A program made the translations under genes and the position numbers. Shown here piece after piece: positions 9,001 through 57,000 of a stretch of 64,000 nucleotides of DNA (its first letter is position 1; each line of letters begins with the position of its first letter). This DNA is from an uncultured Planctomycetales bacterium (GTDB lineage: Bacteria > Omnitrophota > Gorgyraeia > Zapsychrales > JANLHA01): the NCBI GenBank assembly GCA_964374105.1, contig CAYJXI010000001.1, positions 135,743-199,742 on the forward strand, in the 5' to 3' direction. The notes below the pieces were generated by a model. The model was not told the DNA's origin. It saw only the letters and a program-made list of their open reading frames with translations, and did not search any database.

Positions 9001-12000
9001 TGTTGTTGACAAGGGCAAAGAAGGTTCTTCAAGAAAAATCCGCATCCCATGACAAGGATGAACCGAAGGCTAGAGAGGCGGCGGAGGTATCAGGCAACCT
9101 TGACGACCAAAAGGTACATTTGGGCGCCTGGTCAGGTGAACCGCTCTTTAAGGATCTCGAAGCTGAGGGTTATGTTAAGGCCAAGGTTAAGGTCGGACCG
9201 TTTGAGTATCCTGTTTATCAAAAGGGTGAACAAAGGCTTATCGTCAAGACAAGATCACACATGTGGTTTGAGGCGTTTATTGAACGCATTGCCTTTGAGG
9301 TGGCGCAGCGCGTTCGTATCGAGACAGCCGGTATTTGGTTTGTGAAAGATAAAGAAGAACGTATCTTACGTGCCCGAGAATACTGGCCAAACAGCGAGGT
9401 CCTTTCCCATCGAGACCCGATATCTGAGGAGATTATTCATGAAAGCGAATTAGCGAAAATACAGCCGGAACTTAAAATGGTGTTCCCATCACAGGTCAAT
9501 TATCCGGCCTGGCTGCCGCATTTGGCCCGGCCAGAACAATTTATTGGTTCTGATATTTTAAGACAATTTATGCAGGTTGGGGATTCCTGGGATCCGAAAC
9601 AAGTACTCATAAAACCAGTGAGTCGATCTGCCGAAGGCAAGCAATTTTATGAAGCCAGGTTTATCGATTTTGAACATGGGATGGTCATGATTATTCTGGG
9701 TCCGGAGACATTGGTCGCTTTCTTACAGGAGAATAGTTTATTATTGAAACACCACACCCGGCCTGTCTTAGAAAGGTTAGCCAATATTACGGATGAGGAA
9801 ATTGACCGTTTGATCTCTTCGGTTTTCCCTGATGAATTAGCCTCGGTAGCACAGGGTGAAGACATGAGATCATACGCGGATGTTAAGTCAACAGTAGCCA
9901 GCGGCTTAAAGACCAGCCGCGATATTGTGCGTAAATATCTGCCACAGATTAAATCGGTACCGGACATAATCGTTGATGGGACACAAAGGCCGCAAGATGC
10001 CAAGGGCTCGATCGCAGAAGGCTTAAGAACATTCCTAAAAGAGTTTAAAGATCGCTCAGTCACTTTACAAGAGTTCCGTTATAAACGTTTAACCCCTCAA
10101 GGCAGTCCGTACAGTGACACCACCATTCGTATGGAATTGAAGATGCTTGAGTTGTTGGGATTGATCTTTGTTGATCGATCGCTAAGATCTTATCGCTACC
10201 AATTGATTGAGGAGGTGCGCAATCTCTCACCGCCAGATTTGGAAGAAATACTGCAGGCCCAATGGTTGCAAAAATACAAGCTTTCTAGTCTTGGTTTGGT
10301 GGCCGCAAGACGCGATGTTCATAAAATCCTTAACCGTAATCGTCCTGCCGATTGGATTCCTGTCTGGCCAAGACAAATCCCTCGTAAGACCAAAATCGAT
10401 CGAGAAGAATTAGAGCAAATCACCTCTAAATTAAAGATGCATATTGAAAATTTGGTTAAGAATCATGATAGCCAAATGAAATTCAGCCACGATGAGACTA
10501 TTGAGATTCTTGTCTCTGCTGCTGATATTGGTTTCCATTTTGGTTTAACCGCGCCAGAGATGAAAGAACTGTTAGAAATGGCAGAATTTTTTGTAGATGC
10601 TACCGAGAAACCAAAGGGAGAATGGATCCCGCTTGACTTTATCAGTCTGATACGAATGACCCTCATCATCCTTAATCAAGTGAGGCTTGTTTACTTGGGC
10701 TGGATTATTGATTTACATCCTAAGGAAGGAGGAATACAAATTCATGAAGTCATGTCTTTTGATTTGATTTATTCTGAAAATCTCCCGCTTATTTTGGCTA
10801 CGATAAAAGATTATAGACCGGAACATCACCTTGCTGCATTCGAGTCTCCCCTTTATATCTTTTTGGATCAAGATGTCTTTGTTCATGGAAAACTTATCAA
10901 AGAAGAAAAAGAAAAATTAGAGAATCTCCCGAATTACATAAGGATGGAATATCCTCAATTGTCTCAATTCGTCGATTGGGTGAAAAATTTTAGTAAGGAA
11001 GAATTTATGGCCTTGGAAAGAAAACGGGTTTTATTTGAAGAATGGACGCATTATTTACAGTATCTAAGGATTAAAGATAAGCAGGATTACTATTTAAAGA
11101 ATCAACTGACAAGGGAGGAGCGAGGCGAACTTATCGAGAGAATCTTTAGTCTTGAGCAAAAAATAAAATTAGTCCGTTCGGTTAAAGAGGAACTTTTGGA
11201 AACAGTTGAGAATCTTTCTTTAACTGGTCAAGAACTCTTCAGTCTCATAGACGAAACCCATTTGGCCCTTGTTCGGATCTTATATGCTCAGTCGATAAAT
11301 GATTTCTATCTTACTTTATTAGAATTTATTATCAAGAGTCGAATTTATGAGGGGATTCAGTACCGGACAGATGAGAATTATATTACCGCTGCCCAGATTG
11401 TCTTAAAGAACCTGGTTCTTCACCTTTTTAGGAAAGAGTCTTACCATCGACCGATGATCGAACTGGTTAATGAGATGATCTCTATACCTTTGGAACAATT
11501 ATGGAAGAGAGTGAGAAGACTTACTAAACTGAGTCACAAGTCATCCCTCGCTAGCGCTCCCCGGCCCGCCAGTCACGAAAGCCGGGGCGGGCGGGACAGG
11601 CAAGTCAGACCCGCCCGCCGGACGGGCAGGAGTCAGAAGATCACAGGTCACCTGCCTCGCCGGCAGGCAGGCGAGCCACGGGTCACGGGACATGGAAGTG
11701 ATCCTGCTAAACCCAGAAATGGTTATCGGCCCAGCCAGGTTATAAGAGAATTTAGCAGGTTTAAGAGAAATCATTTTAAAGGCTTTAAACCAAATTATAA
11801 GTTTGATGATAAACAAATAGAGACTTGGATTAACACCAATATTGAACTGGCGGCGGTCTATTTCCGCAGTAAAGAGAATTATGCCACAGTGGAAAGACTC
11901 CTAAAGGCGGTCTTTGAGGAAAGGCTGCTTTGGGGTGAAAATCATATCTTCTATGGCGCTAATAATTACAACGGTCGCAACGAGGATGGGGCGATTTATT

Positions 12001-15000
12001 TGGTTGCGATCAATGACAATCCTTATTTAGCCGAAACCCTAGTGCATGAATTTTCTGGTGGTCGCCACAAGCAAAATCGGAAAGCCGAAGAAGATTTTCG
12101 TGATTGGTATCGCAGACAATCGCAGAAAGAACGCCCGCAATTTATCGAAATCAAAGGCGGCGATTACGATCCCGAGGCTTGGGCCAATCAACCTTTAACT
12201 TTGGCGGTTGTGGCTTGGTCTCATTACCAGGAGTCTAAAGAAATATTATCCTTCAAGCCAGGCGAGGGTATTAAGAAGCCTAGGCCGTCTCAACAATCGG
12301 AACTTTTGATCAGTAAGAAGGCTTTAACTTCAATTCGAGAGCAAATTGATCAAAAGCTACAAAGTGCTCAAAATAGCATAACCCTTGCGGTTGCCGATGG
12401 ACGAGAAATTGAATTTACAATACACGAAATTGCTGGACAAAAGTTTCTCATTCAAAAAGATTGGGGTGCGCAGGTAGGCCTCTCTGTGGAGATGTTGGTT
12501 TTGGCGATTCAAGATATTGCTTCAAGCAATCGGTATTGGAAAAAGGTAAGAAATCATCAACCCTTTGTCATTATGCCTCTTAATCATATCTATATCTTTG
12601 ACCATCAAACGGGAAATCTGCGTGAGGCCTTGGCGGCCAGCATTACCAGTCACAAGGTCATTGTATTACACGAAAAATTGCCCGAGATATTGGTTGAAAT
12701 TCAGAATAACTCTGCCGCCAAGAAGGTGCTGGGGACATTGGTGTGGCATTTATTGCGTTATGAATTTGTGGAAGAAATTATGAAAGCGGAAACTGATTTT
12801 ATGCTCGCTCAGGAGGACTTTAAATATTTAATGGGAAGGAGTCCAAGATCATCCCAACTTTCCGGTGCGCGAACAATCAGATCTCTCAATAAATTAGGTG
12901 TATTGAATCTCACTTATGTCCCCGTAGATATTCTGGGAGACATTTTGGGATTTAGCTCTGCCTACAATAAACGGATTGTGACAGTTCTCAAACAACACGG
13001 CATGCGCACCATCCGTCAGGTTCTCGAAAGACCCTTAAAAGATTTAACGGAAATCCGGTTTGGCGGTAACAGCCAGGAGGCGGTTATGGCCATCATCCAG
13101 GCCTTAAGATTCTATGGCTGGGTCTTGCCCAGTGATTTAGGCCAATGGTGGGAGGTGATTGAAAAATTAGCGAGAAAAGAAGGCCGCCAGCGGATCCCAT
13201 CCTATCAATATGCAATCGTCCGTTTAGCCGAGATCGCTCCCGCATCCGTAGCCGTCCTGCGTGTCCTCAAAGAACACAAAGAGTATAATGTCTCAACTCG
13301 TTTGAGGGTTATTCACCGTTTAGGACGAATTGATCAAAAAAGCCTTGATGCATCACAAATCAAGATCATTGTTTATGTCTTGGGGCAGGCGCTTTATCAA
13401 GAAGAAAGAGATGATCTGAGACTGGAATTGGTAAGAAGCCTGGTTAATTACGGCAAGGATGCCTTAGAGATTTTAAAGACAATCCTTCGCACATCGGATA
13501 TGTTTTCAAGGGAGTTTATCATTCGGGCTTTATCAAGAAGCAAAGAGACGATTGATTTACAATCATTGCTAGGTGATAAGGAGGAAGATGAACCGCATGC
13601 CATTACCTCACAGTCGCAATTCCATGAAGTAATGAAAGCTATCCGAAAAGGAAATCTCAGACTCGCCAGATGGTTTGGCGTTTTGGGATATGCCTTGAAG
13701 ATTCTCGAGGAATGGATAGCCAAATCCGGACTCATGACTGGCCCGCCGGAATTCGGGAATTCAGTTGCCTATCGTACTTACGATGGGAAGATTATCAGAA
13801 GACTTTCCCACCAGCAGGTTCAAGAAATTCTTAAAACCCACCAGTTTGATGATGAATTAATCCGTATCATTCAAGAACAGATTGATCTGCACGAAGCACA
13901 ACCCACCGAACGCAAGGCTATTTTAGCCCAAAGAAGGACCTTACGAAGACTGATCAAAGAAAGGCGAGTAGAAGCAGTTTCAAAACCCCTTGATTCCCTC
14001 CCCCTTGTGGGGAGGGCTAGGGAGGGGGAGAATTTACAGGATTCACCCTCCCCTAACCCCTCCCATCAAGGGAGGGGAAATAAAAAGGAAGCACTTGATT
14101 TCGAGGTTATGAAACCAGTTCTAGTCACAAATTACCCTGGCCTGGCTGCCAGGACAGGCGGGTCATCCCTCGGCTTCGCTCGGGATAGGCAAGTCACAGC
14201 TCGGGGCTTCTTCGCTCAGAAACGTTTGAACGCCAAACTGCCCGTTCATCTCTGGGAGATTCCATTAGGAATAACACAAGAAGATAAGGTCGCTATTGAA
14301 TCTATCATTTCTAACAATGAGTTTGATGCGGTGACACTCACTGAGCGTCCGGTGAGTGATGCCTTTGCCTCGGTCCGGCGAGTTATTTGGCAGATGAGAG
14401 AGCACATGATTCAGGGACGCTGGGTTCAATTCAAGGAATTCTTATCCGCATTGAAGGAATCTTTGGTTAAAGTATTTAGTGAAAAGGCACGCCGCGACAG
14501 TCTCAATACATTAGTTGATCTCCCGCTAAACGTGGAGGCGGTGTTGCACCTCGGCGCCCAGATGCATGGACGCCAGTTCCTAAAGAAAAGAATCCTCAAG
14601 GCGCAAATATTGGGTGCGAAGGCTTTGCTGGTATTTTCTGGCGGTGGGTTCTTCCAGCGATATATCGTTAAGACTCCTATGGGTCGGTTACTTAAAGCCT
14701 CGGGGATTTATGATCTCTTCCAGCGCATGGATGCGGTAAGAATCATAAGACTTTTAGGTGAGATGCAATCACGAGGCGAGATCACAAACGATCTACCGAT
14801 TTGGATTGTGGTTAATCCCAACGAAAAAGACCAACAGCGGGAATTGGCAGCCCTTCAGGAGAAATTAGATGAATTAAAGAAATTCCGATTCCAAAATGGT
14901 CAGCTTGTTAATGTCGCCATATTAACCCAGCCCTCATTGTTTGCCTTAAATTGGAATACGGATCGAGGTCACTGGCAGCCGACATCTCAAGAGCAAGACG

Positions 15001-18000
15001 AATTTAAAAACTTCTTCTTAAAGGCTGAAGAGCGAGGATTGCTTAACAGCATTCCGGTGATCTTCGGCATGCCGAACTTTTTGTCCCTTTATAATGTCGA
15101 TTTCTGGATTTATCTGGTGGGAAGAAAGGTCAGCAAGGATCGTGCGGCTAAACAATTGTACGAGGTCTTTAAGGAGGCAGACTTAAAAGATGAGAGATTA
15201 GCACAATCAACAAGCCAGCCCAATGTTCATTACGAATTTATCCATCGCCGAAACCTCTGGGCACAGGCGGCCATTAACTACGCACAGGATTTGGCCAAAG
15301 AGCTAAGTTCCACTACCAGCGGCTTTATCTTCCAGCCGGCCACCCGCAAGGCCAATATCCCATCTGTTCAAAATCAAATGAGAGAAACCCAATTAACCGC
15401 GGTTGAGCGCGCCTATCCGGATTTGATGAGACTCACTTCTCTCTTAAAGGAGAAAGGAATTGAATTAAATCTCAATTTGGCTCATCTCGACACTAAGCGA
15501 TTAAGGACACTACGCAATTTGTTGATTGAACTTAATAACGAAAAGCCGAGATTCTTTGAGTTGAGCTTAAACGATAAGGCGGTCTTAAACATCTTACAGG
15601 CGAATCCGGTTTTGGTGGATGCGATCAGTGAAGCGATCAGTCATTTAGGCGTAAGGGTTGAATTTACCCCGCATCTTAAGGAATCAAAATATACAAAGAT
15701 CCTTTACGAGGCGCTTTATGTAGTCTGGCGGGCGCTGTATTTCTTAGAGGCTCAATACCGTCCAACGCGCATTCGTGTTGGGGTCATGACACATCCCCGG
15801 CAGACCTTCCAAATCAATGTGGCGGCCCGGCGGTTTATGGTCAGAAACGAAAAGGGTCAATTGAAAGATACCGGGCGCTGGGAATTGCCGATTAATCTTG
15901 AACCGTTTATTATCCATTTGAATGAAGAGGTCATGCTTAATAGTACAGTCTTCGGTGAGGAAATTGACAAGATTTTACAGCGCATTGTCAAGAATGAACC
16001 GATGAGTAAGGGTGGAACTTTTATCGGGAGCGGTCAACCCACGCGCCTCAAAGACAGTGTGATTTGGAAGATCGGCCAGTATTTCTGGGAACTGCACGAT
16101 GAATTCGTGAAGGTCACCAGCGGCAGGGAAGATTACCGCAGCCGTATCGGCGGCACACCGGATAGTGTTGAGGAATTTGTCCATTATCAGGTTGATGCGA
16201 TTTTTTCCGAGATGGTATTGCCGGCCTTAAGAAATAATCGGCAGGTATTTTTGCGCAGCATTGGTCCTGGCGTTCCAGACTTTGATCGCAAGGCCTTGGA
16301 TCGAATCGCGGCACTGGCTCAGAAAGAAGGAATAAGTCTTAAGAAGTTTGAATATGTCTTTGAAGATAAATCGGCAAAGGTCATCGAGAATATCAAGGCT
16401 GTTATCGGCTTAGAAAAAGATAAAAAGACCGGTATTCGTGTCAAGTATGTGACAAGGGACATCAAGGAAACATCTTCGGATATTATCGATCAAGAATCGG
16501 TCAGTGTGGTGCGTATGGCTAATGTCTTGGGTGTACTCGAAACCGACCGCATGGCCATTATTGACGGCAAGATGTATCAGCATGAGGTCATAACGCATCT
16601 GCCGCCAGGTTTTGACGAGGAGTTAGCCGCGGCTTATAGTTTAGACAAAGAAAAATTGATTCGTGACCTTAGAAAGCTAAACGATGAAGAAAGTGTTAAA
16701 TCATTCTTTACCGAGTATCGAGGTTTGATTGGCGATCATCACCGATTCTACCAGTTCTGGCAGGCGTTCTGGGGCCATGAGGATAAGCCGCATACCGGTA
16801 TCAAGAATGAAGAAATCTTGGTGGAGATCCCGCAAGAGAAACTCAAGGACTACGCTTTCCTCAACGATGAGGTGCTTAAAGATTCCGGTGAGATCTTGGT
16901 CGAACTCTTACAAGAGGTTCCCGAAGGGATTTCTGATATTCGGTTCTTGACTTCTAACGGGGCTATTGAGGCCCTGCTGAGACAATTAAATGTCGCAAAG
17001 TCGGTCAGGGAAACCAATGTCATCGTAACCGATCAGCGGTCGTTCTACAATGTCCGCCGCATAACGGTTCTGCATAAATATGATGCCTCGATGGCGGGAT
17101 GGATTAACGGTGTTACCTTGATTAAGGCTATTGAGCGTAAGTTTCAGAATAACGTCCTCATTAATATTCAGTCAGTGGCTAAGCTGATACCCGGCATGGA
17201 TTCCTTTAAACGCTGGTTGCATATACAAGTAACAAAAGATCCGCTTAATGTCAGCGAATGGTTGACAAGCTTTAACTTACCGGGCGGCCTGCGGGAGTGG
17301 ATCTTTGAAACAGGGACGGGATTTAATAGTCTTCGCACTTGGTGGAATGATAAGAAGCGTCGTTATCCGCATCAAGGGGTGGATTTGGCTAAGTATTTTG
17401 ATGGGGAAGGAAATATCCGGGCAGTTGTGCCTGGGACAGAGATCCCATTGATTGCGGATGGCGAGGTTGTCCGAATCATTGAAAATGGCAAGACGGAAGA
17501 ATTCGACTACATTGGTCAGACCGTGATTGTTCGCCATAATATTATGAATTATCACGGTGAGTTTTTACATTCGAGTTTCGGTCATATGAATCCAGTGGCT
17601 GGCTTGAGGTTAGGTCAGTCCTTAAAGCGGGGCGACACAATCGGCAACGTTGCCGATAGCAGAACCCGTGGCCTGCGTGTCGCCTCGCACCTGGATTTCA
17701 CTTTATTCTGGGCGAAGGCGGATGTGGATTATACAAGGATCAATTGGAAGGTGATTAATCAACGAGAACCAATCCTAGGGCTGGTGAATCCGCTGCCTCC
17801 AGATTCAAGCAACAAACCAATAGATCCTGCCAAGCCGCGTGAGGGAAGAACTGAGGCAGAGGTTGTAGCTAGGTTCAATGAATTAAAGAAAAGGAATTTC
17901 AAAGGATTCCCTGCGATTTATCCGCATAATATCCCGGATTGGGTCTTAATGGTTTTGGGTTATTACAACTATTCGGGTGATCTTGTTCGCTATGGAAAGT

Positions 18001-21000
18001 TAATTGAGCTCATCAAGTCAGGGAAACTGCGTGCTGGACCGGATAAAAAGGAAATATTCTATGGTGCCAATGACACTGAGACATATCTGATTGCCGCCAA
18101 TGATAATCCTTTCAAGGCTGAAACACTCATTCATGAGCTGCATGGCGGCACGCATGAAGAGAACGAAGAAGCGGAAAGAAAATATGAGAAATTCTTTATT
18201 GGAGTGGTTCATCCTTATCAAATGGCGATTGATGAATCTATCAATATTATTATTGAAAAGCTCATTGGGGAATTGGACAGTAAGACAGGCAGAGGGGACA
18301 GTCCCCCTGCGGGGACCACCGCTATCGCGGGGCAGGCAGTCCCCTCTGCCTCAGCCATCGAGGAATTTGACGCAACGAGAACCTCGCAAGAACCTTATCT
18401 CATCTGGCAGATCAACTATCCTTCCGAGAATGCCATTCTACTGAAGACTCGTCTGCGATCTGGGTTGAAGCTGACCATCCTACCGAGGGTTTCTGATGCG
18501 AATGATCTTTCTTCCCTTGGGGAAGGCGAAGCCGATATCTTAGCGATTCAGATCAAAGGTAAGGCAACGCTTGCACCTCATGAAATCATTCATTCCCTTT
18601 TTACAAAGATTCAAGAAGGCGGTTTTATTTTGATCCACAATGATCAAGTGATTTTGACATTGGAGAAGGTCAAAGGTGGACTTGAAGTTAGGGGCTTGTT
18701 TATTAAGATGAGCGTCGAACAGCAAAGAAGCTCCCAGTGGAATATTGATCGACCGACCATTTATCTTCACCGTCAGTCAGCTGGTTTACTGAAATCTCTT
18801 GGGCCTAAATTCTTCCTTAATCCTAAGCGGTTGAGCGATTATTTGATGCTTCATCATTCATTTGCTAAATATTATTTCATCATAAAGAAAATAGAGGCCA
18901 TCTTCAAAACTGCCTTTGCAAAGACCATGGATTGGCTCGAAGATCAGGATGAAGAATTGTTGAAGGCAAGGAGAGAAATCGATGAAGTGTATAGGGAAGA
19001 GAAATTCAAAGCCATGTTTAGGTATAAACGAGCGATTAAGGTGCACCTGTCTTTCAACACGGATCTTATTATAGCGAAACGCATGGTTTCGACTTTCAAG
19101 AGGTTAGGTTACGAATCAAAAATTGAGGGGCCGGTTGTTACCTTAACCCGATGGGGCAAGAAGGCCATTCATTATTATGTTTATATCGCCTTGCCGGCTT
19201 TCAGCATCTTAAAAGATCATCTTGTTATCAAAGAGATTTCATCGCCAGGATCTAACCCTGAACCCAAAGAAAAGGAGGTTTTGGAAGAGATTGAGAAAGA
19301 ACCTGCTAAGGAGGATCTTCGCTTGGCTGAGGCCAAGGCCGCCCATGAAAGAGTTAAGAGTCTTCTGGTTGTTGTCCAAGAAGAGCTCCTGAAGGAAGCC
19401 GATCAACTTATAAATAATCCTGATCCCTTCTGGCAAGTTAACGTTAGCATTATGCGAGGCTGGTTTGAGAACCTTGCAAAAGAGAATATCCAATTTAATC
19501 AGGCTATCATGCTAGAAAAACTGCGCTTTGATCGAAATTACTGGAAGTATGATTTGGTCAAGATCCCATTTTTTATTAAGCTCCTTCTTTCCCCACAAGA
19601 GGAAGAGGTGTACGAGGCCTTATTAGCCAATTTGATGTTTATTTGGTATCACCTTGAACCTAAGAAAGAGGAAAGAGAAACAAAAGAAAAGTCTGATTCG
19701 CTTCAAAGAAAGATTAAGGCCTTTGAATATTTACATAAATTGATTACCAAGATGATGATTGTTGTGAATATTCAGGAGATCATAAAGCAGACAGATAAAA
19801 AGGTGCGACAAAATTATTATGAAAAAGGGGACAGTCCCCCAAAGGGGACAGTCCCCAATGACAAAACTTATGAATTTTACAGCGGCGGTGAATTAAAGAA
19901 ATTGGTTGAGTTCTTTAAGGAAAGTTCAACCACTTATCAACTGGTTGAAGCCACAATGGGTTTGATTAAAGATTACAACGATGTTGAGGTTGTCTTCAAA
20001 GAAGACAAGCCAGATTCTGGTAACCTAAATCTTTCAAAAGGACTCGGAATATTATTGACTCTTGGTCTTATCCACAAGATTCTACAAGTCTTTACCAAAC
20101 AGCCTAAGGAGGAGGCAGTCAGAGTCGCTCAAGTTTTTGATTTTCCGTTGTTTGACTCTACGTTTTGGTTGACGGTTCTTGTTATTGGTGTCGCCTTTAT
20201 TGGAATTATAACCATAAAGAGCATGATAAAGAAGCAATGGATTCGTTCTTTGATGAAAACATTTAAAGATCAGAATCGAGATCTTAAAATCCGAGCCAAG
20301 GCTTTACGGAGATTATCCTTTTTATTCAGTGGAAGGAAAGAGGAAGTGATTTTAAAGACTTTCGTTAAAGCCCTCGAAGAGAAAAATCTTGAGATTCAAA
20401 TTGAAGCCGTCCGAGGTCTTGGGCTCATTGGAAGTGAACCAGACTATCTGCCTTATGTTTTAGATATCCTCACGGAGTTAATAGTGCGCAATGAAAGAAT
20501 CGTCAAAAGGGTAATGCCTGTTAGGGAATTGAGGCAATTCGTACCATATAAGCTTCTACAGGAAGTGGCGGTGAATATAGGTGAGATAGGGAAGCCCGCT
20601 TTATCCGAACTGGAAAGATATATGGGATTGTCGCTTGATACCTCTCGGACAATCATTGCCTGGGCGTTAGCACTCATCGGAAAACCGGCTTTAGCGATTC
20701 TCACCAAGGCCTTAAGCGAAAATGACCTCGCTAAGAGAGCCACTGCGGCCGAGGCCGTGTCTTACTTAAAACCACGAATAATTAAGAAGTCTATTCATGC
20801 TCTTCAATCTTCTCTCATCGACCAATATGATGATTATCATTACATGAGTTTAATTCATGTTTATGCTTCGCAGGCGTTGGTAAAGGTGGGAGATCGTGGG
20901 GTACAATTCTTAATTGATTTAGCCAGATTCCATCCCAAGATGATGACAAGATTCAGGGCCAGAGATGCCATTGAGGGGATTACAACACCCAAAGTTCTCG

Positions 21001-24000
21001 TACAAACCATTCAGGTATTGCTTGAGACATTGGCAAAGATAGATTCCCATCGAAAAGAAGTAGAGGCCTTCCCTATTGTTGCCTTTAAAGATTATCTTGT
21101 CCGATCGCTTGAAAATACTCCCCAAAAATTAAAGAGGGAGTTTAGAGCCTTATTAGATCAAAAGAAGGCAACAAAATATGTCAAAGAAGGATTAGCGCTT
21201 TTGATTAAGGCTTGGGCGAGTGGTGAAAAATATATAAAGGATCTTGCCGATGAGCTTTTATCGGAGGTTGAAGAAAAAGGGGACAGTCCCCAAAAGGGGA
21301 CAGTCCCCAATGATATGTTTGATGCTTTAATCTTTTTATCCCATCAAGAAAATTACAAAGAGTTTGTTAAAGATTTACACAGAATTGTCTGGGAGACCGA
21401 ACAGATCCGAAGCCTCAAAGAAAAGACTCGTGCCTTGAGATTCCTTTCCATTGCTCCAGGAGAAACAACACCGGAGGCCTTAAAGACATTATTACTTCAC
21501 GAAGATAAGGAAGAAATAAGAATAGAAATCTTAAAGACTTTAAAGCAAATCGAGGCTCGACAATTCAAGCGGCGGGATTTCTTTAAGGCCTCTTTGTTTG
21601 CTGTGGGTGCATTGGTTGGACTTTCCTTAAGAAAAGGTCAAGGTCAAGCCATTAATCCAGAAGAACCCTTAGATTCTAAGAAAGGCATTGGTTTCCATTA
21701 TGCAAAGAGAATTGAGTTCAAACCATTTGATGAAACCCAATTCGCAAAAGACACACTTGCCTTGGAGGTCTTTGTGGTTATGGGTGAGTTTATACTTGAA
21801 TATGCCTCCCTTTTAAAACAGAAGAATCCCAGTGATCTTGACCAAGCAGATCTCAATCAGTTTAGACAGCTTAAGGCAAGAACAGTCGATCGACTTTTGA
21901 ATATTGATTTACGAATCAGTCGAGAATTTGCGGGCTTTTTAGATCAACCGAGTTTAAGTCAGGAAGAAGAGACTCGCTTTAATCAGGTTGTCTACCATAT
22001 TTTGCCGCGTTACTTTGCCAAACGCGGAATTTATTTCTACACCGAATGGGAATTGGTCCGGCACAATCAAGGGTGGCTCGTTTTGGATCAATTTGGTCTT
22101 TATCGAGTTGATCAAGTCGAAGAATACAAGCAAACCCTTTGGGAAGGCCAAGAGGTTGTTTCATCAGAAATCCATATCTCGGAAACCATGCAACTCAAAG
22201 GTGTCCCAGTTGAGAGCAAAGCCAATATTTTGACTCCTCATGAGAAATATCTCAATGTCTTTATTCCCAGAGAATCGGTTTCTTCTGGGGTCATGAACAT
22301 ACAGACACTCCTTGACGTAACGCTTAAGCGATTCAAAGATGATCCAACGATAGGACCATATCTCACTAAGGATTGGGAGGTGATCTCAAAACAATGGAAG
22401 AAAGATCCTCTGCATTTTGCAATCTTAAAACTCCTTTTGGAGTATGAAAATATTCTTACAAACAAAAAGCTGGGAGAGCTTTTTGTCGAAACAAACAGGA
22501 TCCACGAGTCGTATCACATCTTAGAAATTCTTTTAGGCCGAAGACCCTTAAAGTCGGCCATCTCTGCCGATCAAGAACAAATGCGACGATACTTTGATCA
22601 AAGGATTGTGACCAGTGAAATGGGTGCTATGATCACTCAATTGCGATTTGCCTCGGCGGAACATTGGCGATGGGGATTCAATCGATTCCTGGATACATTT
22701 TATGAAGAAGAAGACTTCAACTGGCGGGTTCGGGTCTACAAACCTAAGTTTGCCATTATTGATTTTGTAATCAGTGCCATTGAGGATAACCTTCAAAGTT
22801 TCTCCAATATTGTTGTGGAGGATCCCTCGCCATGGACAAAACGAGCCCAGATTGCTGCCCAGCTCTACAAATTGGATTATGCTCAGTTTATCAAGCTGAT
22901 CAATGCCGCCCACCAGTGGCATGAAAGAAATTATAATAATCCGATTATCCCGGATGGTCTTCTTAGAAACGATCTTTATTCAAAACGGTTAATACAACAG
23001 AAAATCTATTTCCCCACTTGGTTTGAACAATGGGGGAAAATAGTATTAGGGGTTTCCGCTGCCATGGTTAGCCTCATTATTGGCGGATTAACAGTTTGGT
23101 ATTCCAGAATAAAACATAAGGCCAAGAAAGAAAAAGGGGACAGTCCCCAAATGGGGACTGTCCCCAAGGAAGGGGACGGTCATGATCCCACCCGAAGCAG
23201 CCGGCCGCTCAGTAAGGTAGAGAGAAAACGCCTCTCCCGCATCCTTGATCGATCTGCCGAAGAGATTCGCTCAAGCCAGCCCGCCTATGAAGACCAGAAA
23301 CAAAAGTTGGCATCACTGATCCCAGCCGAATTCAACCATGAATTGGAGATCCTCAAGTGGTCGAGGGTGATCAATGCACCGCCAGCATTGGTTGAGGCGG
23401 TCCTTACCCTTCAGTCAGAAAGTCCTGATAAGTTAGAGATCCAGGCCTTAAATACTCGCTTGGATGATCAAGATTACATCATCCTCCTGCCAATCAATCA
23501 AAACAACGAAGAGCAAGTCCTTCGCTCTATCCTTCATGAAGTTCGGGCGATCAGTCTGCGAGGCAAGGCTTCCACCGAGGAGATTCATCGCCAGGCGGAA
23601 GCCTTTGAGCAATGGGTCCAGACTTCATCTCTAAAGCAGGTGAGCGATGAATCCCAAAGACAAGATCAGACAGCGGAGGTATCGGATGAGAACAAGACCG
23701 ATCCGCATCAATGGAAAAATGCCGGAGATATCCGTTGGGCATTTGGTCTTACCAAGGGAGTTGCCGATCAGCTTTGGGAACTCTGGCAGCACATGCAAGG
23801 AAGGCATGGCGAGTATGCTGTTAAGGAATTAGACCGCGGCCTCAGCAAAGAGAATATTAAAGTCAGGGGACTTCCGGCAGAAAAATGGATTAGGGAGATA
23901 CGACCACAATTGAAAGGTTTGAGCATCGGTCGAGTTGTCCATTTTGCCTTTTTTCATATCTTAGCGAAGGACTTAACCCGCCACCTCCCTGTTCTTGAAC

Positions 24001-27000
24001 AATTGCGTCAGGAAGCTGAGGCGCATCATCAGGACTTTATCCTTTTCCTTGAAGATACAGGACCGAATATTCCTGAAGTCGAAGGCTATGAGAATTATGA
24101 TGATGACGAGCTTATTGAGGAGGCGCAAAAAGATAAAGAGTTAATGGCGCTATTGCTTGATTTCTTTATCAAGATGAAAAAAGTCAATCGGGGGTATGCC
24201 AGGAATCTCGAGAAAGGTATTGTTCCCAATGAATGGAAGAATCTTGTTGATGAGCGGATTCCTTTGGAAAAATTGCAGTCTTATGGTCAGGCGGTCAATG
24301 CCTATAGGGCACGGAATCGGATCAAAACAGAAGAAGAGGACATTTCCCCTGAAGACTGGCTGGAGAATGAATGGCAGACGGAAAAGGTTAAGAAATCCTA
24401 CGATCTTTATTTTGATGGTGATCTGAAAGAAAAAGAGGATCGTCAGCAGTTTGTTGAAGCACGGGTAACCCTTGAGCCACGTATTATGAAATTAATGAGA
24501 AGCCGAAACAGCCAGATAATCTCAAAAATTCTTTATCAAGTCTCGCTCGGCCGTGTGGTGGCTTCACTCATCGGAGCTTCGCACGATGGAATCGTGGAAG
24601 CCCTTCAAGCCCAAGGGGTGCATGTCGAGCGCTCTCCCACGGGTCAGGATCAATCCCGGATCTTAGAGCATATAGGCGGAGGCAGTATCGGAGGGATTTT
24701 AGCTGCAGGTAGATCTATCGATTTAGAGACAAGAGCCTTTTATTATCTGCGCATTCCGGTTATCGATTTATTGATGGGAATAGCCTACAAAAATGAATAT
24801 AAAGATACGCTGGCCAATTACAAGGTTATTGGACCGATGACTCACCGCTGGACGATCGAACACATGGCAGGTCTAGTTCAGGCCACCTATGAGAGTAAAC
24901 ATGAAGAGTATATTCAAGAATGGTTGCGTCAACATGCTTCCGAGGAAGAACGCATTATATTTACAACCCAAGGGCAAGCTCAAGGGGACAGTCCCCATTC
25001 GGGGACAGTCCCCTTGAGCAACGGTGGGGAACAAGCACTACACGAGAAAGGTGGCCAGGCTTACAAGCCGCAGGATCACGATGAGCCAACACCATCAGAG
25101 ATTCCGGAGGAATTCAAATCAGCAATCCAGCAAATCATCGGGAATCAGGTTGTGGATATGAAACCCGCACCGTGGCAAGCCTTATGGCTTCTGGTTTCTC
25201 AACAGACACCTGTTAAGGCAGTGGATGTAAAGAAGAAGATCAGCCGCGTTAAGGTTGGCAAAAAATCAGCGAATCTAGCGGAAACGCAGATTAATCAATT
25301 GGCGAAACTCATCAATGATGTTCGACAAAAGCAGGAATCTCAAAAAAGAAAAGAAGAAGGCTTCCTTGTTCTTAAAGAGGATCATCCTGGGTTGAAGTGG
25401 ATGATCAGGCAAATGCAAAACTATCAATTACTTGAAATCATGCAACTGGCTTTAGCCATTGTGCATCGTTATGATACGCAGACACCGTTTGTGGATGAAA
25501 AACAGCTTATGGCGACTTTCAAACGTTTCTATGAACTGGCCAGACGCGATGCCCTCCTCAACGCATACATCCATAGCCATTCTAGAATGGATATAAAAAT
25601 GGGATTGACACGTCTGGGTAAAGTTCTGATAGAGGAAAGGAAGCCCCTCGAAGCGCATGATCAAAGGAATATGGCTATTATAGCTCGAGTTGTGTTAAGT
25701 GTTCATAGTGAGATTGAGCTCGATCAGATTTTGCCAAGGGAACCCAGCAGGATGGAATTGCATATGTACAGTAACCGCCGGGCTAAAGCAGAACTTAAGA
25801 AAACAGAATTCAGCGATGAACAACAGAAATTGCTTTTGGCTGTCTATGTGGTCCTTGGCCTGGTGGCATTTGATGCGGCGACCAAGGAACCGTTGATCAG
25901 CGAGGCGGGGATGAAAGAGATGATAGATCAATTGGAAAAAGAGCAAGTATTAGAAAAAAGTCTTTTGGAGCTTTTCGCCGATTATATTAAGCAAGATAGA
26001 GCCAAAGCGCCGCAAGACAGACAAAGTCCAACATTACCGCAGCCTGAGCTGCGCAGGATCCTGCAGCAAGTTTCTTCCCGTTTAGCGTTAAAAGATCCAG
26101 AAGCCGTTGTTTGGTATTTAACACGTTTACTCTATCGCATTAATCGCGAAATCATGACAAGGTATGAAGTCTACCGCAAGAAGTGGCTCTTAGAATTGCT
26201 TAAAGTCTATCCTGGCGGCATGCATTTGGTGAGCGGTGGACCTTTCAGCCGGGAAGTCATGCGGCATAACCTCATGGCCGGGCAATTTGTGGCCGCCCTC
26301 GCTAAGATTCATGACTGGTTTATTTCCCAAAAGATACGGACAGACCGTGTCCTTTATGAATTCGGTGGAAGCGATATCACAACCGTGCTTTTCTTAACGG
26401 ACGCTCAGGTGATTGAAATCCGCGATGCCCTGCCTTTTGATTTAACGGCTCAACCGGAAGATCATGAAGAATTAAGAATGCTTTATTGGTTCGAGAAGGC
26501 GTTATGGAGTTATACCTCTTCGGAAGATTTATGGATGATTGGTAATGCTAGGGTGCCGCTCTTGTGGGAGATTGAAAGTTTAGGTGTGGAAAGAAAGGAT
26601 ATTACGATTGAAAAGGATGCCGGGCAGGAGAATACCTACATCATCCGTTTCCCTTGGGCTTATGACGGCCGCAGGGAGAATGAAGTACCACGGACCATCA
26701 TCTATCGGGAAATGGAAATTAAGGAACCGAAAGGCATCGTTGCAGCCACCCAACCAATAACGTCCGAAGAGGCATTTGATCTATACTTGCGCAAGGCCGA
26801 TGCCAATAATCCCAATCAGATCCCTCGATTACCGGTGATTATCAAGTTTGGCACTATTCCCGGAGGACTTTCCGGATACCATCGTATTCCCGTAATAGAC
26901 ATCCCCGAATTCCCCAGGGAAATGGTATTAACGGTCATGAAAGACGAAAGGGAATACGCGAATATCAAGCATGGGGAGATCTATATTAGAGAAGAAAGCT

Positions 27001-30000
27001 GGAAGGGGGCAAGGGGGGCAAGGGGGGCAAGGGGGGACAGTTCCCAAATGGGGACTGTCCCCAATGACAATGAACCCAATGAAGGGGGCGGCCATGACCC
27101 CACCCGCTCCAGCCGGCCGCTCCAGGATAGAGAAATTGAAAAAATTGAGGAAATCTTGGCTAAATATCAGGCCTTGATTAAGGGTGCTTCGTCTCTCTAC
27201 GAAAGGTTCAAACAAGCTGTCATTGACGTGTTAAGCAATAATCCTGGATACCGACAAGAAGTGGATATCCTTAAAGGCGCTAAGCTAATTAACGCCCCAC
27301 CTCAGATGTTGCCCGAAATTTATGCTCTTCAAGCAGAAAGCCAAGACCTGACCATTTATGCGTTGAATACAACTGTTGATGGTAAAAATGCTATTCTCCT
27401 TCTGCCTGCCACCCGCACAGATGAAACCCAGATCTTCCGTTCAATCCTCCACGAAATCAAGGCTATTCAATTATGGGGAACCGCAACCCTAGAACTCATC
27501 CACTCTCAGGCGCAAGCATTTGAAGAATTAGTAGAAAGAATTCCATGGCCATCCGTTCAGACTGTTATCCACGAATTCAACGGCGGTACCCACGAAGAAA
27601 ACGAAACAGTCAAAGCGGAATCTAAAGATTATCGACAGGCGGAAGCAGAAAGTTCGATCCCAGAGCCATCGGCTGCTCCTCACGGACAAACGAAGGGATC
27701 TAAGAAGAATAGGCAGCACGCCAGCATTCCCGAATTATTATCTGACTTATCGGATCCGGATGAATTTATACGTTCTGAGGCCGAGATTGAACTCAGCCTC
27801 AAGGATAGACTGCCATGGGATATGCTTTTGGGATATATCAAGAATCCTCCCATTCCTGTCAGGGATGATGAACGCTATTCAGCCGGCCAAGAATATAATC
27901 CGGAAGCCATTCGCAGAGATATTCGGATTTCAATCCTGAAAGTCCTGGGGGATAGCTTGAGCGATGAGGAAATAAGCGGCCTTAAGGGGAAAGCATCAAA
28001 ACGGGACAAGGTCAATAAAATCCTTCAGGGCATGGCTCAACAATGGAAACAACAGGACGACCTTTTACTCACCCAGTTGATCACGAAGAATCCTAATAAT
28101 CCTCTTGGCACAGAAGAATCGCTGAATTTATTGCAGGTGATGGCGCTTTTGATTCATTGGTATATCAAGTTAATGAATAAAGACAAAATTAGGTGGCATT
28201 ATGATTCCCCAGAGGAGATTCTCGATTATACCTTAGTTATTTACAGCAGAAATAATTGGTTTAGCCTGTACTATTTAGGTTATGTTTATGAATCTATCCG
28301 CAAGATTTATCCGGAAATTCAAGATGCCGTTGGTGAGATCCTATATGGTCTTGTCTTCAAGCAAATCAAAGGTTCACGGAAGGCCAAAGAGAAAGAAGAT
28401 CAGACTATTCAATTGAAGAGAAAATCTCCGAGACCTTCCGCAAAGGGCCGCAGAGGATCTAAGAAGGCTGACGAAGAGAATCTTCCGCCAGCCATGCAGC
28501 CAAAGTTCAAGGAGCAATTTGCGGAGGCGTTCGAGCACTCAGAAGAGAGGTTATTGGTTGAAGCGATTGTTCCGCGATTAGAAGAGCAAAAACGCGGTTT
28601 CTGGTGGCGGACTCCTCCCGAAAAATTCGTTGAGGATCACGAAGAGGTTTTTAATACCAAATTAGGAAAATGGCAACCACCTACTAAAAAGGAAAGAGAA
28701 ATCCTCCTTGAGCTTGCTAAAAAAACTGATCGCGCTTTCCACCGTGCCCGGCGGTTTGCGGTTTATCGAATAAAGAAAGAGATCGCCCAAAATGGAAGTT
28801 TATCGTTAATTATGCGATTGATTAATTCTATAAGATTGACTGTTTTATTGAGAATGGCCATTGCCTCTCGTGAATTTGGTCTTAAGGCCGCCATCCGCGT
28901 GCATCAAAGATTTAACCGCAAGCCCAAGTTTGGTTTCTATGCCATGGCTTCTGTTCCCAGTGATCAGAAAGATCATTCCTCCTTAACCTTTGAGGACATT
29001 TTAAGTGGCGAAAGGTTGCTGGACCATCCGGTGGTTCGGGAGCAATGGGAAAGGATTCTCCTTGATCAAAAGATCATTCATCATGTGACCAGTCGTTTAG
29101 CCAAGCTGTTGAAGAGATATAAGAGTTATTTTCGAATTCCGTTGTCTGAACGAACGGAGATTGAATCGCTGATCCCATTTGAGCAAAATCAAGAATATCT
29201 CCGGTATTTCTTAAGTTGGGCCTTTTTAAGATTCGAGGCAAAAGGCTTGGTGAGACTCCTGTCGGCTGGTTTTGATGATGCAGTCGACAAACAAGCCCGA
29301 CGTTTTGCCGCCACTCTTATCCTCGTCTTGGCAATCAAGAAGGCCGAACTTAGTGCACAACTTTTGGCAAGGAACAAAGCGACCCTTAAGATCATTGAAC
29401 AAACCCTCTCTTCGCCAGAGGTGTCTCTCCTTGTGATGCAGGAAGAAAAATCCCTCACAGCATTTAAGGAATATATCTCAGCCCAATGGGCCAAGATCCC
29501 TCATCTATCAGCCTCCTTGAAAGAACGACTGCTGAAACACGTGTTTGAGCTTTGGGAAGAAATTATTTTGAAACCGGCAAGGTTTACACCCTTAGCAGAA
29601 GAATATCAAAATAAGTTCTTTATCCGTAAGGATATTCAAGCTGCCTTACCAAAAGAATTTAAACAGAATCCTTTGGAATTCTTAACAAAGATTCAAAGAG
29701 TCACCCGGGATTCCCGATCTCCGGGGTTGGGGGATATTTCGATCTATAAATTCCCTCATGTTTACAGCCTGTTGTCGATTAAAAAGGATGTCTTGGAATA
29801 TCCTGATTATCGTTCAGACAAGGTTATGCGTTTTGAATTAAAGGATGATCGTACGCTCTTTTTGAAGCGGGTTGATTTTTTAAGAGTACTCCAACCGGAT
29901 GAGGAGATTCATGAGGCTCGTCGGTTCAATCTGGTTTTACGCGCCGCGGGTAATGAACGCTTTGCGGTCGAGGAATTTGTTGGGATTGTCATGATCGGCG

Positions 30001-54000: not shown

Positions 54001-57000
54001 GGGAAACCGTAAAGGTCTATGGTCAGCGGTTCCCGCAGATTTTAGAGACCTTGGCGGGATTATTGAATAGCGATATTGGTCATTATGTGGCTATGCAAGA
54101 ATTAGGCTCATGGATTATCCTTGAGGAAAAGACAGGGAGAATCCGCTTGCGATCTGAAAGTCCAGCCATGAAATTATCGTTTACTCTTTGGGCGGTCCGC
54201 CATGGCCAGACAAAAGGGAACATCAAAGGGATATTCCAAGGCGCGGTGGATAAAGAAGTCAATCAGCTCGATAAGACAGGACACAAGCAGGCTCAGACAG
54301 CTGCCCGGAAGTTGTTCAAAGAGCTTAAAGATGAGATTCATTCCGGCCGAGAGATTGTTGTGGTGACCAGTCAGTTTGCCCGGGCCAGAGATACCGCAGC
54401 CGCGTTTATTAATCTTGTTAAAGAAAAAGCAGGACTGATCATTCATCCCATTTTAGACAAAGGGGCCAATGAGATATCCTTTGGGATTTGGGACAACAAA
54501 ACCGAAGAGCAATTGCGCCGCGAACAAGAAAGGATATCTCGTTATCGCAAAGGACTGGATGCCGCAATCCGGCCGCAGGGCGGGGAGAGTTTTCTGGATG
54601 TTGTCAGGCGCGCACGATATTGGCTTCTTGAATTAAACAATCGTTATCGCGGCAAGACCGTTATCGTTTTTAGCCACGGAACGCTTCTAAGCGCGGTGCG
54701 GGTTTTGTTAGGCGACACGTCCCTCCATGATGAGAGCGGCCAGATTGACTGGCGTAACAAAATGATCCCGCATGCCGAACCGGTATTGCTGGCAAAACCC
54801 CGGGTGTTAACTAACACAGATATCGAATTAGGCTACTCTCATCAAGATCCTGCTAAAAGCAACCGTCCCTTAACGAATAAGGAAATTTCAAGGATCAAGG
54901 GAATTTTAGATCAACACAAAAAGATAATTCAAGAGGCCCCTATCAGCCATGATGCTGAAAAACAAAAGCTGATTCGTTTAATACGAAAGAAGTTTGAAAA
55001 AGAATCAGACATCTTAAATCGAGCTAAAGTGATCGAGGCTCCTTCAGAAGTCGCTGAGGCTATCGATGAGCTTAAGAATACAAGTCCGGATCTTACCCTC
55101 TCTGCCCTAAATACGGAATGGGAAGGTCAAGACTATATCATTCTCTTTGAAGAAACAACAAACCAGCGAGAACTTCTGTGGCGTGCAGTTCTGCATGAGG
55201 CAAAGGCTATTCAACTAAAAGGGACAGCCACCTCCAAGCAGATCCATACCCGCTCCGAGATTTTTGAAAATGATTTCTTCAATTTCCAGAGAAGAAGAAA
55301 GATGATCCTTTGGGGTATACCTACGACATTGGCCATTTTGGGCGGTGGGTTTATGTTAGGTGAGTTCTTGAAGCTTAGCCCAATGGAAGAGGATACCTTG
55401 GAAATTTTCTATGGCCGGCACAGCACTAAAGAAGATTTTGAAAAATATAAGAAATATCTTGCTCGACAAATCAAAAGAGCCAAGCTCGCAGGAAAGAAGA
55501 TGATCTTCCTTCATGAATACAATGGCCTGGAGGCGCATTTCAATCATCCGTGGGTGAGAAGAATCTACAACTTATACCTCACCAATCTTCAAGAGGCGCA
55601 GAAAGAACTGGACTCAGAAAGAGAGCAATCCGAAGCCGCGGCCAACCGGTATATCCGCGGGATATCAAAAGGATTGATGGTGGGTGGTCTCGCAGAAGGA
55701 TTTTTAAGAGACACAATTGAATTCCTCAAAGAACATCAGATTGAGATTGTCTATGAAAAGCTGAAAGTCGAAGATTGGGTTTTAAGTGTCCAAGCGAGCG
55801 TTGAATTGCAAAACGCCACCGACCATTTTCTAGCAGGAAACATCAATAGCTACTTAGAGAGTATGCGAAACAAATGGTTGTTCAATCAAAGAAGCACCGA
55901 AGGCCGAGACCAGAAATTAAGGCAGCAGATTAATGACTTTATGGCCCCCGGGAATGTTTATCTTATCAGCCATCGCGGGACATACCATGTGGGAATGGAG
56001 AAAGTCTTGACCCAAGCCAATTATAAAGTCAAAGCTCATCATGAGCCTTTAGCCGAATTGTTAACGAAACAGCATGGCTGGTCTATCATCACACTCAAAG
56101 AAAGACTCGGGGTTGTGGTTACTGAGCAAGAACGCCGTCTTAGGCTCTATCAGGAGATGGTTGGACAACTGCTGCATAATTATTTCATCAATAAGAAGAT
56201 AACTCAAGATGACCGCGAAAAAATGGTGAATGCCATTTTGAGTTCTGAGAAAGTTACCGAAGAGATGGTGATGGAGTTGTCTCAATATTTAGCTGTCTTG
56301 GGGAATCAAAGTTATTCCTTCCTTACCCAGAGGGCTTATCAATGGCTTGAAAAGGAGGGTTTGATTCCCGAATCAGTTAAAGCGAGGCTTAAAGACAACA
56401 CCAGAAGCAGCCGGCTGCTGACGGATAAAGAGAATGAATACATTCAAAAGGTAATGATGGAACACAAAGAGCAAATCGCTCTGGCGGCCCGAGAGGCTAT
56501 CGGGGATGATCCCTTTAAAGATAAGAAAGAACTTATCATTAAGATTCTTAAGGACAATCAATACCAGGATCTGGCTGAGCGTTTAAGGAATGCAGTTGTC
56601 ATCACGGCACCTCTTCATGGGATCAAAGATCACATTTTAAGAGGATTGATCCAAGATATTTCCCTCCTTGAAGGAGTAGCCAGAACAAAAGACGAACCGT
56701 TAATTGTCTATGCCCTGAATAGCCAAGTTGCCATTGAAGAAAAAGATTTTGATGTGATCATTCTTCTTTCTGTCAGCCAAATCAATGAATTGGAAATCAT
56801 CAAATCTCTTGTTCATGAAACAGTGGCTATGTCTAAGGTAGGAGAGGATTACACAAAGGTGCACGCAGCTGCATTGGAATTAGAAAATTGGATTGAAGAA
56901 CAATTAACAAATCTTTCTGCCTCTAAGTCTAAGAAAGGGAAGAAAAATCCTAAGGAAGATAAGACCAAACGAAGAAGGAAAGGAAAGAAAAGTATCAACG

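Follow-up and report, generated by a model that had tools for sequence, protein, structure and literature searches.

An undescribed domain superfamily with a candidate zincin-like metal site recurs in giant multi-enzyme proteins of Omnitrophota-type bacteria

We analysed a 64,000-nucleotide stretch of DNA (hereafter the window; contig CAYJXI010000001.1, positions 135,743 to 199,742) from an uncultured Omnitrophota bacterium, in which a domain that we term module A recurs within one giant reading frame. Module A is a compact domain of ~125–140 amino acids (aa) and belongs, together with the related modules A′ and B, to an undescribed superfamily that, within our sample, is restricted to giant multi-enzyme proteins of the Omnitrophota type. 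Its conserved polar residues (Asp, Arg, Asn, His-Glu, His and Glu) suggest an active or metal site and not the packing of a core, and the Asp/His-Glu/His constellation most likely forms a non-canonical zincin-like metal centre. We tentatively favour the reading that the module is a non-canonical zincin-like metallohydrolase, a claim that we hold to be somewhat short of probable.

Frame +3 of the forward strand is stop-free from position 3 to 63998 (21,332 codons) and open at both window ends, compared with 872–1693 stops in each of the other reading frames, and the largest other open reading frame (ORF) in the window does not exceed 181 aa. Since frame +3 is stop-free over all 64,000 bases, the window is an internal piece of one giant gene. 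Two full copies of module A are encoded in this frame, copy 1 at 11697..12110 (aa 3899–4036; hmmsearch, 256.8 bits) and copy 2 at 17820..18197 (aa 5940–6065; 211.4 bits), the latter starting ~30 aa downstream of an M23 domain. In copy 1 the motifs follow the order DPAKPRNG, FKGF, FYGAN, YLVAINDNP and AETLVHEFSGGRHKQN..AE..F. An earlier note, made from the letters of the window alone, had described a recurring module at three sites, and all three do lie in frame +3; the blocks that it listed (RNxFKGF, FYGAN, NDNP, AETL(V/I)HE and GGxH(E/K)(E/Q)N) are present in the translations. Pairwise alignment bore out the recurrence. The two full copies share 32.7% identity over 147 aa (blastp, E = 1.9e−19), and their Smith–Waterman score of 209 compares with 30 ± 5 in 1000 shuffles (z = 35). 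The regular expression HE..GG.H matched exactly three times in the 21,332 aa, where ~0.003 matches were expected from composition.

The limits of the copies needed correction. The domain starts ~15 residues upstream of the starts in the earlier note (11745–12125 and 17864–18200), which adds a conserved N-terminal block, D-P-A-K-P-R-x-G. The third site, which had been taken for a truncated copy at 27550–27615, is an A-type C-terminal element only (27555..27629, forward strand, aa 9185–9209, VQTVIHEFNGGTHEENETVKAESKD; profile match, i-Evalue 3.3e−5). It covers just the last 25 profile positions (114–138; TVIHEFNGGTHEENE) and directly adjoins the end of the second copy of module B, a different repeated module, and is thus a fragment joined to a distant paralogue rather than a decayed full copy. 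Because the shared tails of the sites are only 52–59% identical at the DNA level, the window repeats represent old rather than recent duplications. Six further distant members in the window, and the single giant ORF itself, had been missed.

That the family is real and its copies are homologous we regard as virtually certain, and it recurs one to several times per giant protein. When a profile built from the two copies was scored against 1.84 billion representative proteins, 51 matches were obtained at E < 1e−3 and 28 at E < 1e−10. Most of the matched sequences were pieces of very long proteins, reaching 7,087 aa and carrying 1–3 copies each; the match to one protein (P0048) was a false positive on a GloVer-type ‘LHEFAGG’ repeat. 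We also scanned GTDB species genomes and metagenomes with the degenerate DNA pattern [LI]-I-A-x-N-x-N-x5-x-L-[IV]-H-E. True copies were confirmed by hmmsearch at 27 of the 31 pattern loci in GTDB species genomes, and 7 of the 11 metagenome loci likewise held true copies. Most loci were stop-free across 8-kb stretches in the frame of the module, and a minority, including most short metagenome contigs, carried in-frame stops. One of the metagenome copies makes up a stand-alone ORF of ~215 codons from stop to stop (L038, identical to P0019); nearly all copies lay inside huge ORFs. The organisms were mostly Candidatus Omnitrophota metagenome-assembled genomes, with a few labelled Planctomycetales/Planctomycetia, Brocadiia, Elusimicrobia, Nitrospiraceae or Clostridia, and one 251-kb Omnitrophota contig carried at least eight copies of module A. 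A search of the GTDB genomes with a single copy found no close relative. In a second protein index the two-copy alignment found no match and an alignment of 44 sequences only two short proteins, from which we conclude that this index barely covers the giants.

Several loci showed irregularities. At locus L017 (JAGUXD010000185.1, frame +2) two A modules form a direct tandem (aa 1040–1158 and 1166–1288) with a gap of only 8 residues; in the second, which looks decayed, the N-terminal Asp is missing and Tyr-Leu replaces His-Glu. Loci L025, L033 and L040, all of which encode the same 1,043-aa protein (P0008), contain several long ORFs in one frame split by single stops, with the module 53 codons after one of them, which may reflect one giant ORF broken by stops, by errors or by read-through. 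An apparent ORF start shortly before the module proved to be an artefact of masked N runs at L028, and at L025 it belongs to a series of in-frame stops.

Among 68 distinct full-length copies, the near-invariant positions were D4 (65 copies), R9 (66), G82 (68), G89 (67), N108 (66), H119 (64) and E120 (66), followed by E133 (62) and H126 (58). The earlier note had called its central motif invariant, which holds between the two window copies and not across the family, in which NDNP and AETL are moderately conserved (D109 in 39/68, P111 in 47/68).

Module A corresponds to no family that we could find. Neither window copy matched Pfam at E ≤ 1, and scans of 44 members singly against Pfam and NCBIfam returned only scattered single marginal matches. 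Profile searches of PDB with alignment A3 and the superfamily alignment A5 produced chance-level matches only, which were a designed repeat protein, the SGNH lipase 1yzf (E = 0.22) and a Fas death domain. AlphaFold2, given the 44-sequence alignment A3 with copy 1 first, yielded a confident model with a predicted local distance difference test score (pLDDT) of 95 and a predicted template modelling score of 0.89; with only the two window copies, pLDDT was 48. The predicted fold consists of a first strand (residues 6–8), three helices (14–26, 41–60 and 64–75), a three-stranded sheet (79–82, 87–91 and 103–106), a helix ending in L-[IV]-H-E (113–121), a tight turn and a helix that starts with His (126–145). 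Foldseek found no significant match for this model in PDB or BFVD, which agrees with the earlier suggestion that the module belongs to no known family. The motif strings were not found in the searchable literature, and neither of the two papers on giant genes mentions the module. Specific enzyme classes were also considered and rejected. An Asn-lyase or Asp-Pro self-cleavage at NDNP or D-P fits poorly with the variability of P111, and Pro follows Asp4 in only ~40–50% of 46 aligned copies. The first strand has no His, as an HNH/beta-beta-alpha nuclease would require; there is no PCxxC of a deaminase; and the HExxGH of DPP III differs in spacing and in its second motif.

Module B widens the family to a superfamily. 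Its six copies in the window, all on the forward strand, were delineated by internal blastp repeats and alignment at 23175..23648 (aa 7725–7882), 27087..27563 (aa 9029–9187), 54837..55307 (aa 18279–18435, directly after a His_Phos_1 domain), 56385..56927 (aa 18795–18975), 57765..58274 (aa 19255–19424) and 61410..61886 (aa 20470–20628), the first two also by hhalign; the internal BLAST starts fall at aa 7728, 9032, 18282, 18798, 19258 and 20473. Copy 1, which is preceded by a transmembrane (TM) helix (aa 7680–7698) and a Lys-rich stretch, carries DPTRSSRPL, VINAP, IQALNT, YIILL, SILHEVRA and EIHRQAEAFE. The motif order is the same in B and A: D-P-T-R-S-S-R-P-L corresponds to D-P-A-K-P-R-x-G, V-I-x-A-P to L-R-A-G-P, Y-A-L-N-T to F-Y-G-A-N, I-I-L-L to L-I-A-T-N, S-[IL]-L-H-E to T-L-I-H-E and I-H-x-x-A-E to H-x-x-N-x-x-A-E. 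Scanned against Pfam, the six B copies returned no consistent match. An intermediate subfamily, A′, was found in L004 and P0005. It has a B-like N-terminus (K-D-P-T-R-x-L-P-G-Q-P-M) and an A-like core (V-R-A-G-P, L-S-L-I-H-E-I-G-A ... S-H-E-x-N), and hhalign linked it to A at E = 1.9e−17 (128 columns) and to B at E = 1.8e−7 (117 columns), compared with E = 2.1e−5 for A versus B. On these profile comparisons, the B modules are distant homologues of A, joined via A′. B-type copies occur in other genomes too (L019 and L028), and the window holds eight full superfamily members plus one fragment. Two of its B modules are flanked by a duplicated segment of ~210–250 aa (27723–28493 and 56991–57752, aa 9241–9497 and 18997–19250; 43% identity, E = 2e−50), each copy of which adjoins the B module on the module's downstream side.

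Aligning 19 representatives of the three modules A, A′ and B (13–35% identity) left Asp4, His119, Glu120 and His126 as the only invariant columns. The His/Glu-rich core that the earlier note had proposed as a metal-binding or catalytic site is therefore, together with the N-terminal Asp, what the superfamily conserves, and the site may serve either purpose. In the mechanism that we propose, Asp4, His119 and His126 would hold a metal ion, probably zinc, and Glu120 would act as general base, with the N-terminal Asp supplying the ligand missing from the metzincin-type motif. The metzincin motif is HExxHxxGxxH. Motif spacing was counted over 91 members, with HE present in 64–66 of the 68 full-length copies. 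At +4 from the His, 69/91 members have Gly or Ala and one has His. Counting on to the next conserved His gives +7 in 50 members (module A, HExxGGxH), +10 in 20 and +12 to +19 otherwise (+16 to +19 in B). The +10 forms, among them HEIGAVFGLDH, HEMLAAAGLDH, HEIGALLNFSH and HELKALSLGRH, space their two His as in the metzincin motif, with Ala as the central residue; in a subset, such as HEIGAVFGLDH, Gly(+7) is kept between His(0) and His(+10). Candidates for the further ligands are the conserved downstream His at +7, +10 or +12 to +19 (58/68 in A), E133 (62/68) and Asp4 (65/68).

Two patterns of substitution bear on this site. Copies that lack H119 usually also lack H126 (3/4 versus 7/64; Fisher P = 0.009), a joint loss that fits both residues serving one site. 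Mutual information over the 68 copies was dominated by insertion columns and uninformative except for K7/E133, a covariation that we checked manually: 56 members have Lys and Glu at these positions, and all four members with Trp7 have Val or Ala at 133. On the strength of this covariation the N-terminal strand would run next to helix 5, and Asp4, in that register (three strand residues spanning about the same ~10 Å as seven helix residues), would come near His126.

Several results weigh against a catalytic zincin-like site. The canonical HExxH is absent, as is the extended motif HExxHxxGxxH/D, with the loop in module A three residues shorter, and no conserved Met indicative of a Met-turn follows in the alignments. 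That D4, H119 and H126 lie close together is a deduction, not read from model coordinates, and the K7/E133 covariation comes from one clade (four sequences from three proteins). H126 is absent in 15% of copies, and the alternative ligand E133 is more readily explained as forming a salt bridge with K7. The best Pfam match to any member, DUF6782 ‘putative metallopeptidase’ (E = 0.011, 1/44 members), fell below the cut-off.

The resemblance to zincins extends beyond the His-Glu pair. As in zincins and metzincins, a hydrophobic helix ends in x-L-[IV]-H-E, and as in metzincins a Gly-containing turn is followed in many members by a conserved His at +10. The [FY]-G-A-N block ~28 residues upstream resembles an edge strand, the predicted order of sheet, HE helix and a second helix with a putative ligand is similar to that of zincins, and Asp is a possible third ligand, as in some zincins; snapalysin-type HExxHxxGxxD enzymes and aspzincins use an Asp ligand. 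In contrast to zincins, the second His is replaced by Ala/Gly in most members and the loop is shortened in A, the candidate Asp ligand comes from the extreme N-terminus, and neither a Met-turn nor any profile or fold match was identified. Given the lack of HExxH and of such matches, we describe the module as working like zincins and do not assign it to their clan. The window also contains, at ~990–1170 (aa ~330–390), a module with canonical HExxH (GILYINPITLRAPQEQLMVIFEGHELYHLLGRNEEE) that resembles a classical small zincin and weakly matches DUF5700 (E = 0.16); a similar segment, with DEIDH, lies at the C-terminus of P0050. A phmmer search of the collected sequences with aa 286–420 found no significant relatives and no link to A or B, so that this module could not serve as a bridge to classical zincins.

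Protease-like modules within long chains have precedents. The MARTX cysteine protease domain and the zincin-like releasing peptidases of polymorphic toxins occur as a single copy per protein, some with demonstrated cleavage. Module A is likewise a small protease-like module in a very long multi-domain chain beside potential cargo; unlike these, it occurs in many copies per chain, and its cargo would be metabolic enzymes rather than toxins. Metallopeptidase cores are ordered as beta-sheet, backing helix, active-site helix and a following ligand-bearing helix (PMC9262961), and the predicted element order of the module agrees with this. The same study describes the N-domain of CphA1, a cryptic metallopeptidase-like domain of ~160 residues inside a larger enzyme, which is a precedent for an unrecognised domain of this kind, whereas its inverzincin HxxEH and Cys third ligand set it apart and it has no sequence relation to the module. 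In the Omnitrophota giants themselves, C39 and S8 peptidase domains have been proposed as processing enzymes (West-Roberts et al. 2023, 10.1101/2023.11.21.568195). Module A is embedded in giant proteins of the same class. However, those Cys and Ser peptidases sit near the N-terminus, occasionally the C-terminus, and are recognisable by Pfam, whereas the module is internal, present in many copies, invisible to Pfam and without a Cys or Ser nucleophile.

The main rival to a metallohydrolase is a non-catalytic cap or adaptor. On this view the module would be a pseudo-enzyme without hydrolytic activity whose zincin-like ancestor lost the second His, and would form a structural head at the N-terminus, perhaps stabilised by metal, for docking, oligomerising or regulating the next enzyme unit. 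We consider this possible, if doubtful. The canonical second His is indeed absent in 90/91 members, no fold or profile links the module to active peptidases, some copies persist despite lost His residues, and fusion 4–11 aa upstream of many unrelated enzymes is what would be expected of a generic accessory domain. However, Glu120 is kept beside His119 in 66/68 copies, the polar residues Asn108 and Arg9 are also near-invariant, and D4, H119, E120 and H126 stay invariant at 13–20% identity, which a purely structural role rarely demands.

The position of module A along its host chains bears on what a hydrolase might do there. In homologues the module often ends 4–11 residues ahead of an unrelated enzyme domain. 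In P0001, the copy at 96–214 precedes an NTP_transferase domain from 225 and that at 1198–1318 a methyltransferase from ~1328; in P0002, the copy at 1251–1370 precedes GDPD from 1381, and that at 1619–1745 what reads by eye as an epimerase-like Rossmann start, where the protein ends 40 aa later and Pfam has no match. A module followed by an enzyme domain was also seen in P0024 (1131–1257, then Epimerase from 1261), P0011 (65–203, then a methyltransferase from ~208) and P0032 (42–165, then Radical SAM from 216). Copies within one chain are spaced ~130–1500 aa apart. As the partners are NAD-dependent epimerases, nucleotidyltransferases, radical-SAM enzymes and methyltransferases, a cytoplasmic location is argued. 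In a subgroup read by eye (P0010, P0012, P0017, P0020 and P0039), a TM-like hydrophobic helix follows within ~20–40 aa of the module and is succeeded by apparent LysM-like domains and, in P0010, by an apparent M23-type domain; this arrangement suggests a membrane-proximal position of the module on the cytoplasmic side.

Whether the giants are cleaved was posed as a question by West-Roberts et al. (10.1101/2023.11.21.568195), with no cleavage points known. Since a recurring protease-like module precedes enzyme units, the most likely role for it, though a speculative one, is that of a peptidase in the maturation of a giant polyprotein, in which it would punctuate the chain ahead of those units. 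A dedicated role in polyprotein processing is nonetheless unlikely in our estimate. Its fullest form, for which we see a small chance, is that A, A′ and B constitute processing machinery: a new class of minimal metallopeptidases with a split His-Glu...His plus N-terminal Asp site, placed ahead of each enzyme unit, that would cut the 20,000–147,000-aa precursor into individual working enzymes, either in cis or, at linkers nearby, in trans. The case for cleavage itself is circumstantial: conservation stops at the domain edges, the flanks of 40 residues upstream and downstream of the modules show only a slight linker-like bias, no recognisable enzyme directly follows either window copy of A, and no A or B module lies within window aa 9500–18000.

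A narrower version, and an improbable one, is a cis-acting autoprotease, in which the module cuts its own boundary (upstream of D-P-A-K-P-R or after helix 5) and frees the adjacent enzyme, in the manner of the self-cleaving leader proteases of viral polyproteins or the MARTX cysteine protease domain. The punctuation of the chains at intervals of ~130–1500 aa, the module ends close ahead of enzyme domains, the abrupt onset of conservation at Asp4 after unconserved sequence and the treatment of cleavage in the literature as open, without cleavage sites (10.1101/2023.11.21.568195), are all consistent with it. However, the sequence before Asp4 and after Phe136 holds no conserved residue that could define a scissile bond, and the N-terminal strand is predicted to be integral to the fold, which makes Asp4 more simply a ligand. 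The module-free stretch of the window and the existence of tandem modules only 8 aa apart (L017) also argue against self-cleavage.

Another hydrolase class, such as an SGNH/GDSL-like enzyme with FYGAND as the block III ‘GxND’, is very improbable. The superfamily alignment paired VIFFGAND ... MIHEIG with the lipase/acylhydrolase 1yzf, and one of 44 members matched Pfam Lipase_GDSL (E = 0.13); both E values are at chance level. Only the block-III-like FYGAN(D) is present, without a GDS(L) Ser block or a DxxH block, A′ and B-like members do not conserve the YGAN Asn, and the model has a helix-rich N-terminal half rather than flavodoxin-like alternation. Chance resemblance, low complexity or a known short repeat such as the GloVer ‘LHEFAGG’ can be dismissed for practical purposes: the profile does weakly match GloVer-type repeats (P0048; TIGR03803, E = 0.024), but that similarity spans only ~40 residues around HEFxGG, whereas the copies align over 125–140 aa (E = 2e−19), with 68 distinct full-length members and a confident AlphaFold model, and alignment, profile search, model and shuffle test have already refuted it.

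The two giant-gene studies (West-Roberts et al. 2023; Nielsen & Lui 2026) left open the function of the 10,000–147,000-aa Omnitrophota proteins, and one asks whether they work as a single chain or are cut into pieces (10.1101/2023.11.21.568195). Both surveys rely on Pfam-type annotation, which is blind to the module. Our analysis supplies a superfamily open to profile searches, four invariant residues that look catalytic, a confident structural model and a repeatable position before enzyme units, and with these a concrete candidate for the processing or regulation of the giants. The modules also give natural boundaries at which giants can be split into units for structure prediction. If the site binds metal, it would be an unusual zincin-like centre in which the second His is replaced and an N-terminal Asp recruited; a non-catalytic module would still represent a new type of building block that is abundant in the largest bacterial proteins known. 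Were it true that the modules process their hosts, giant genes would amount to bacterial polyprotein operons.

The host product in the window is a giant multi-enzyme, membrane-anchored protein of the Omnitrophota type. A single ORF of at least 10 kAA, many enzyme Pfams and TM helices, the marks of the giant-protein class, are all present: the open frame exceeds 21,332 aa, and it contains more than 12 distinct enzyme families and ~14 TM-like hydrophobic segments. It fits the class that Nielsen & Lui 2026 call the ‘multi-enzyme metabolic cluster’ and likewise the giant genes described by West-Roberts et al. 2023 (10.1101/2023.11.21.568195). Pfam domains follow in the order GT4/GT1 glycosyltransferase (aa 1518–1884), Bac_transf, PALP, HEAT repeats, M23, SNF2/Helicase_C, several methyltransferases, a kinase-like segment, GNAT, HAD, His_Phos_1, PEP-utilizers and PPDK_N. 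Cysteine is extremely depleted, with only two residues (aa 17469 and aa 19183). M23 enzymes carry H-x-H at their C-terminal motif. The M23 peptidase domain of the host (17421–17729, aa 5807–5909; Pfam E = 5.7e−9) has S-H-L-D there and may be inactive.

Two further repeats were observed in the same frame. Three tandem units of ~700 aa with 37–49% identity and no Pfam annotation occupy 32589–38786 (aa 10863–12928). A third repeated module, ‘D’, for which no Pfam match was listed, occurs in 11 copies at ~28410–32520 and ~42360–50280 (aa ~9470–10840 and ~14120–16760). It is helical, with an N-terminal P-P-A-M-Q-P-K-W, a conserved V-H-x-x-Y-N and a C-terminal G-[IF]-L-A-M, and kinase-like, GNAT and methyltransferase domains lie among its copies.

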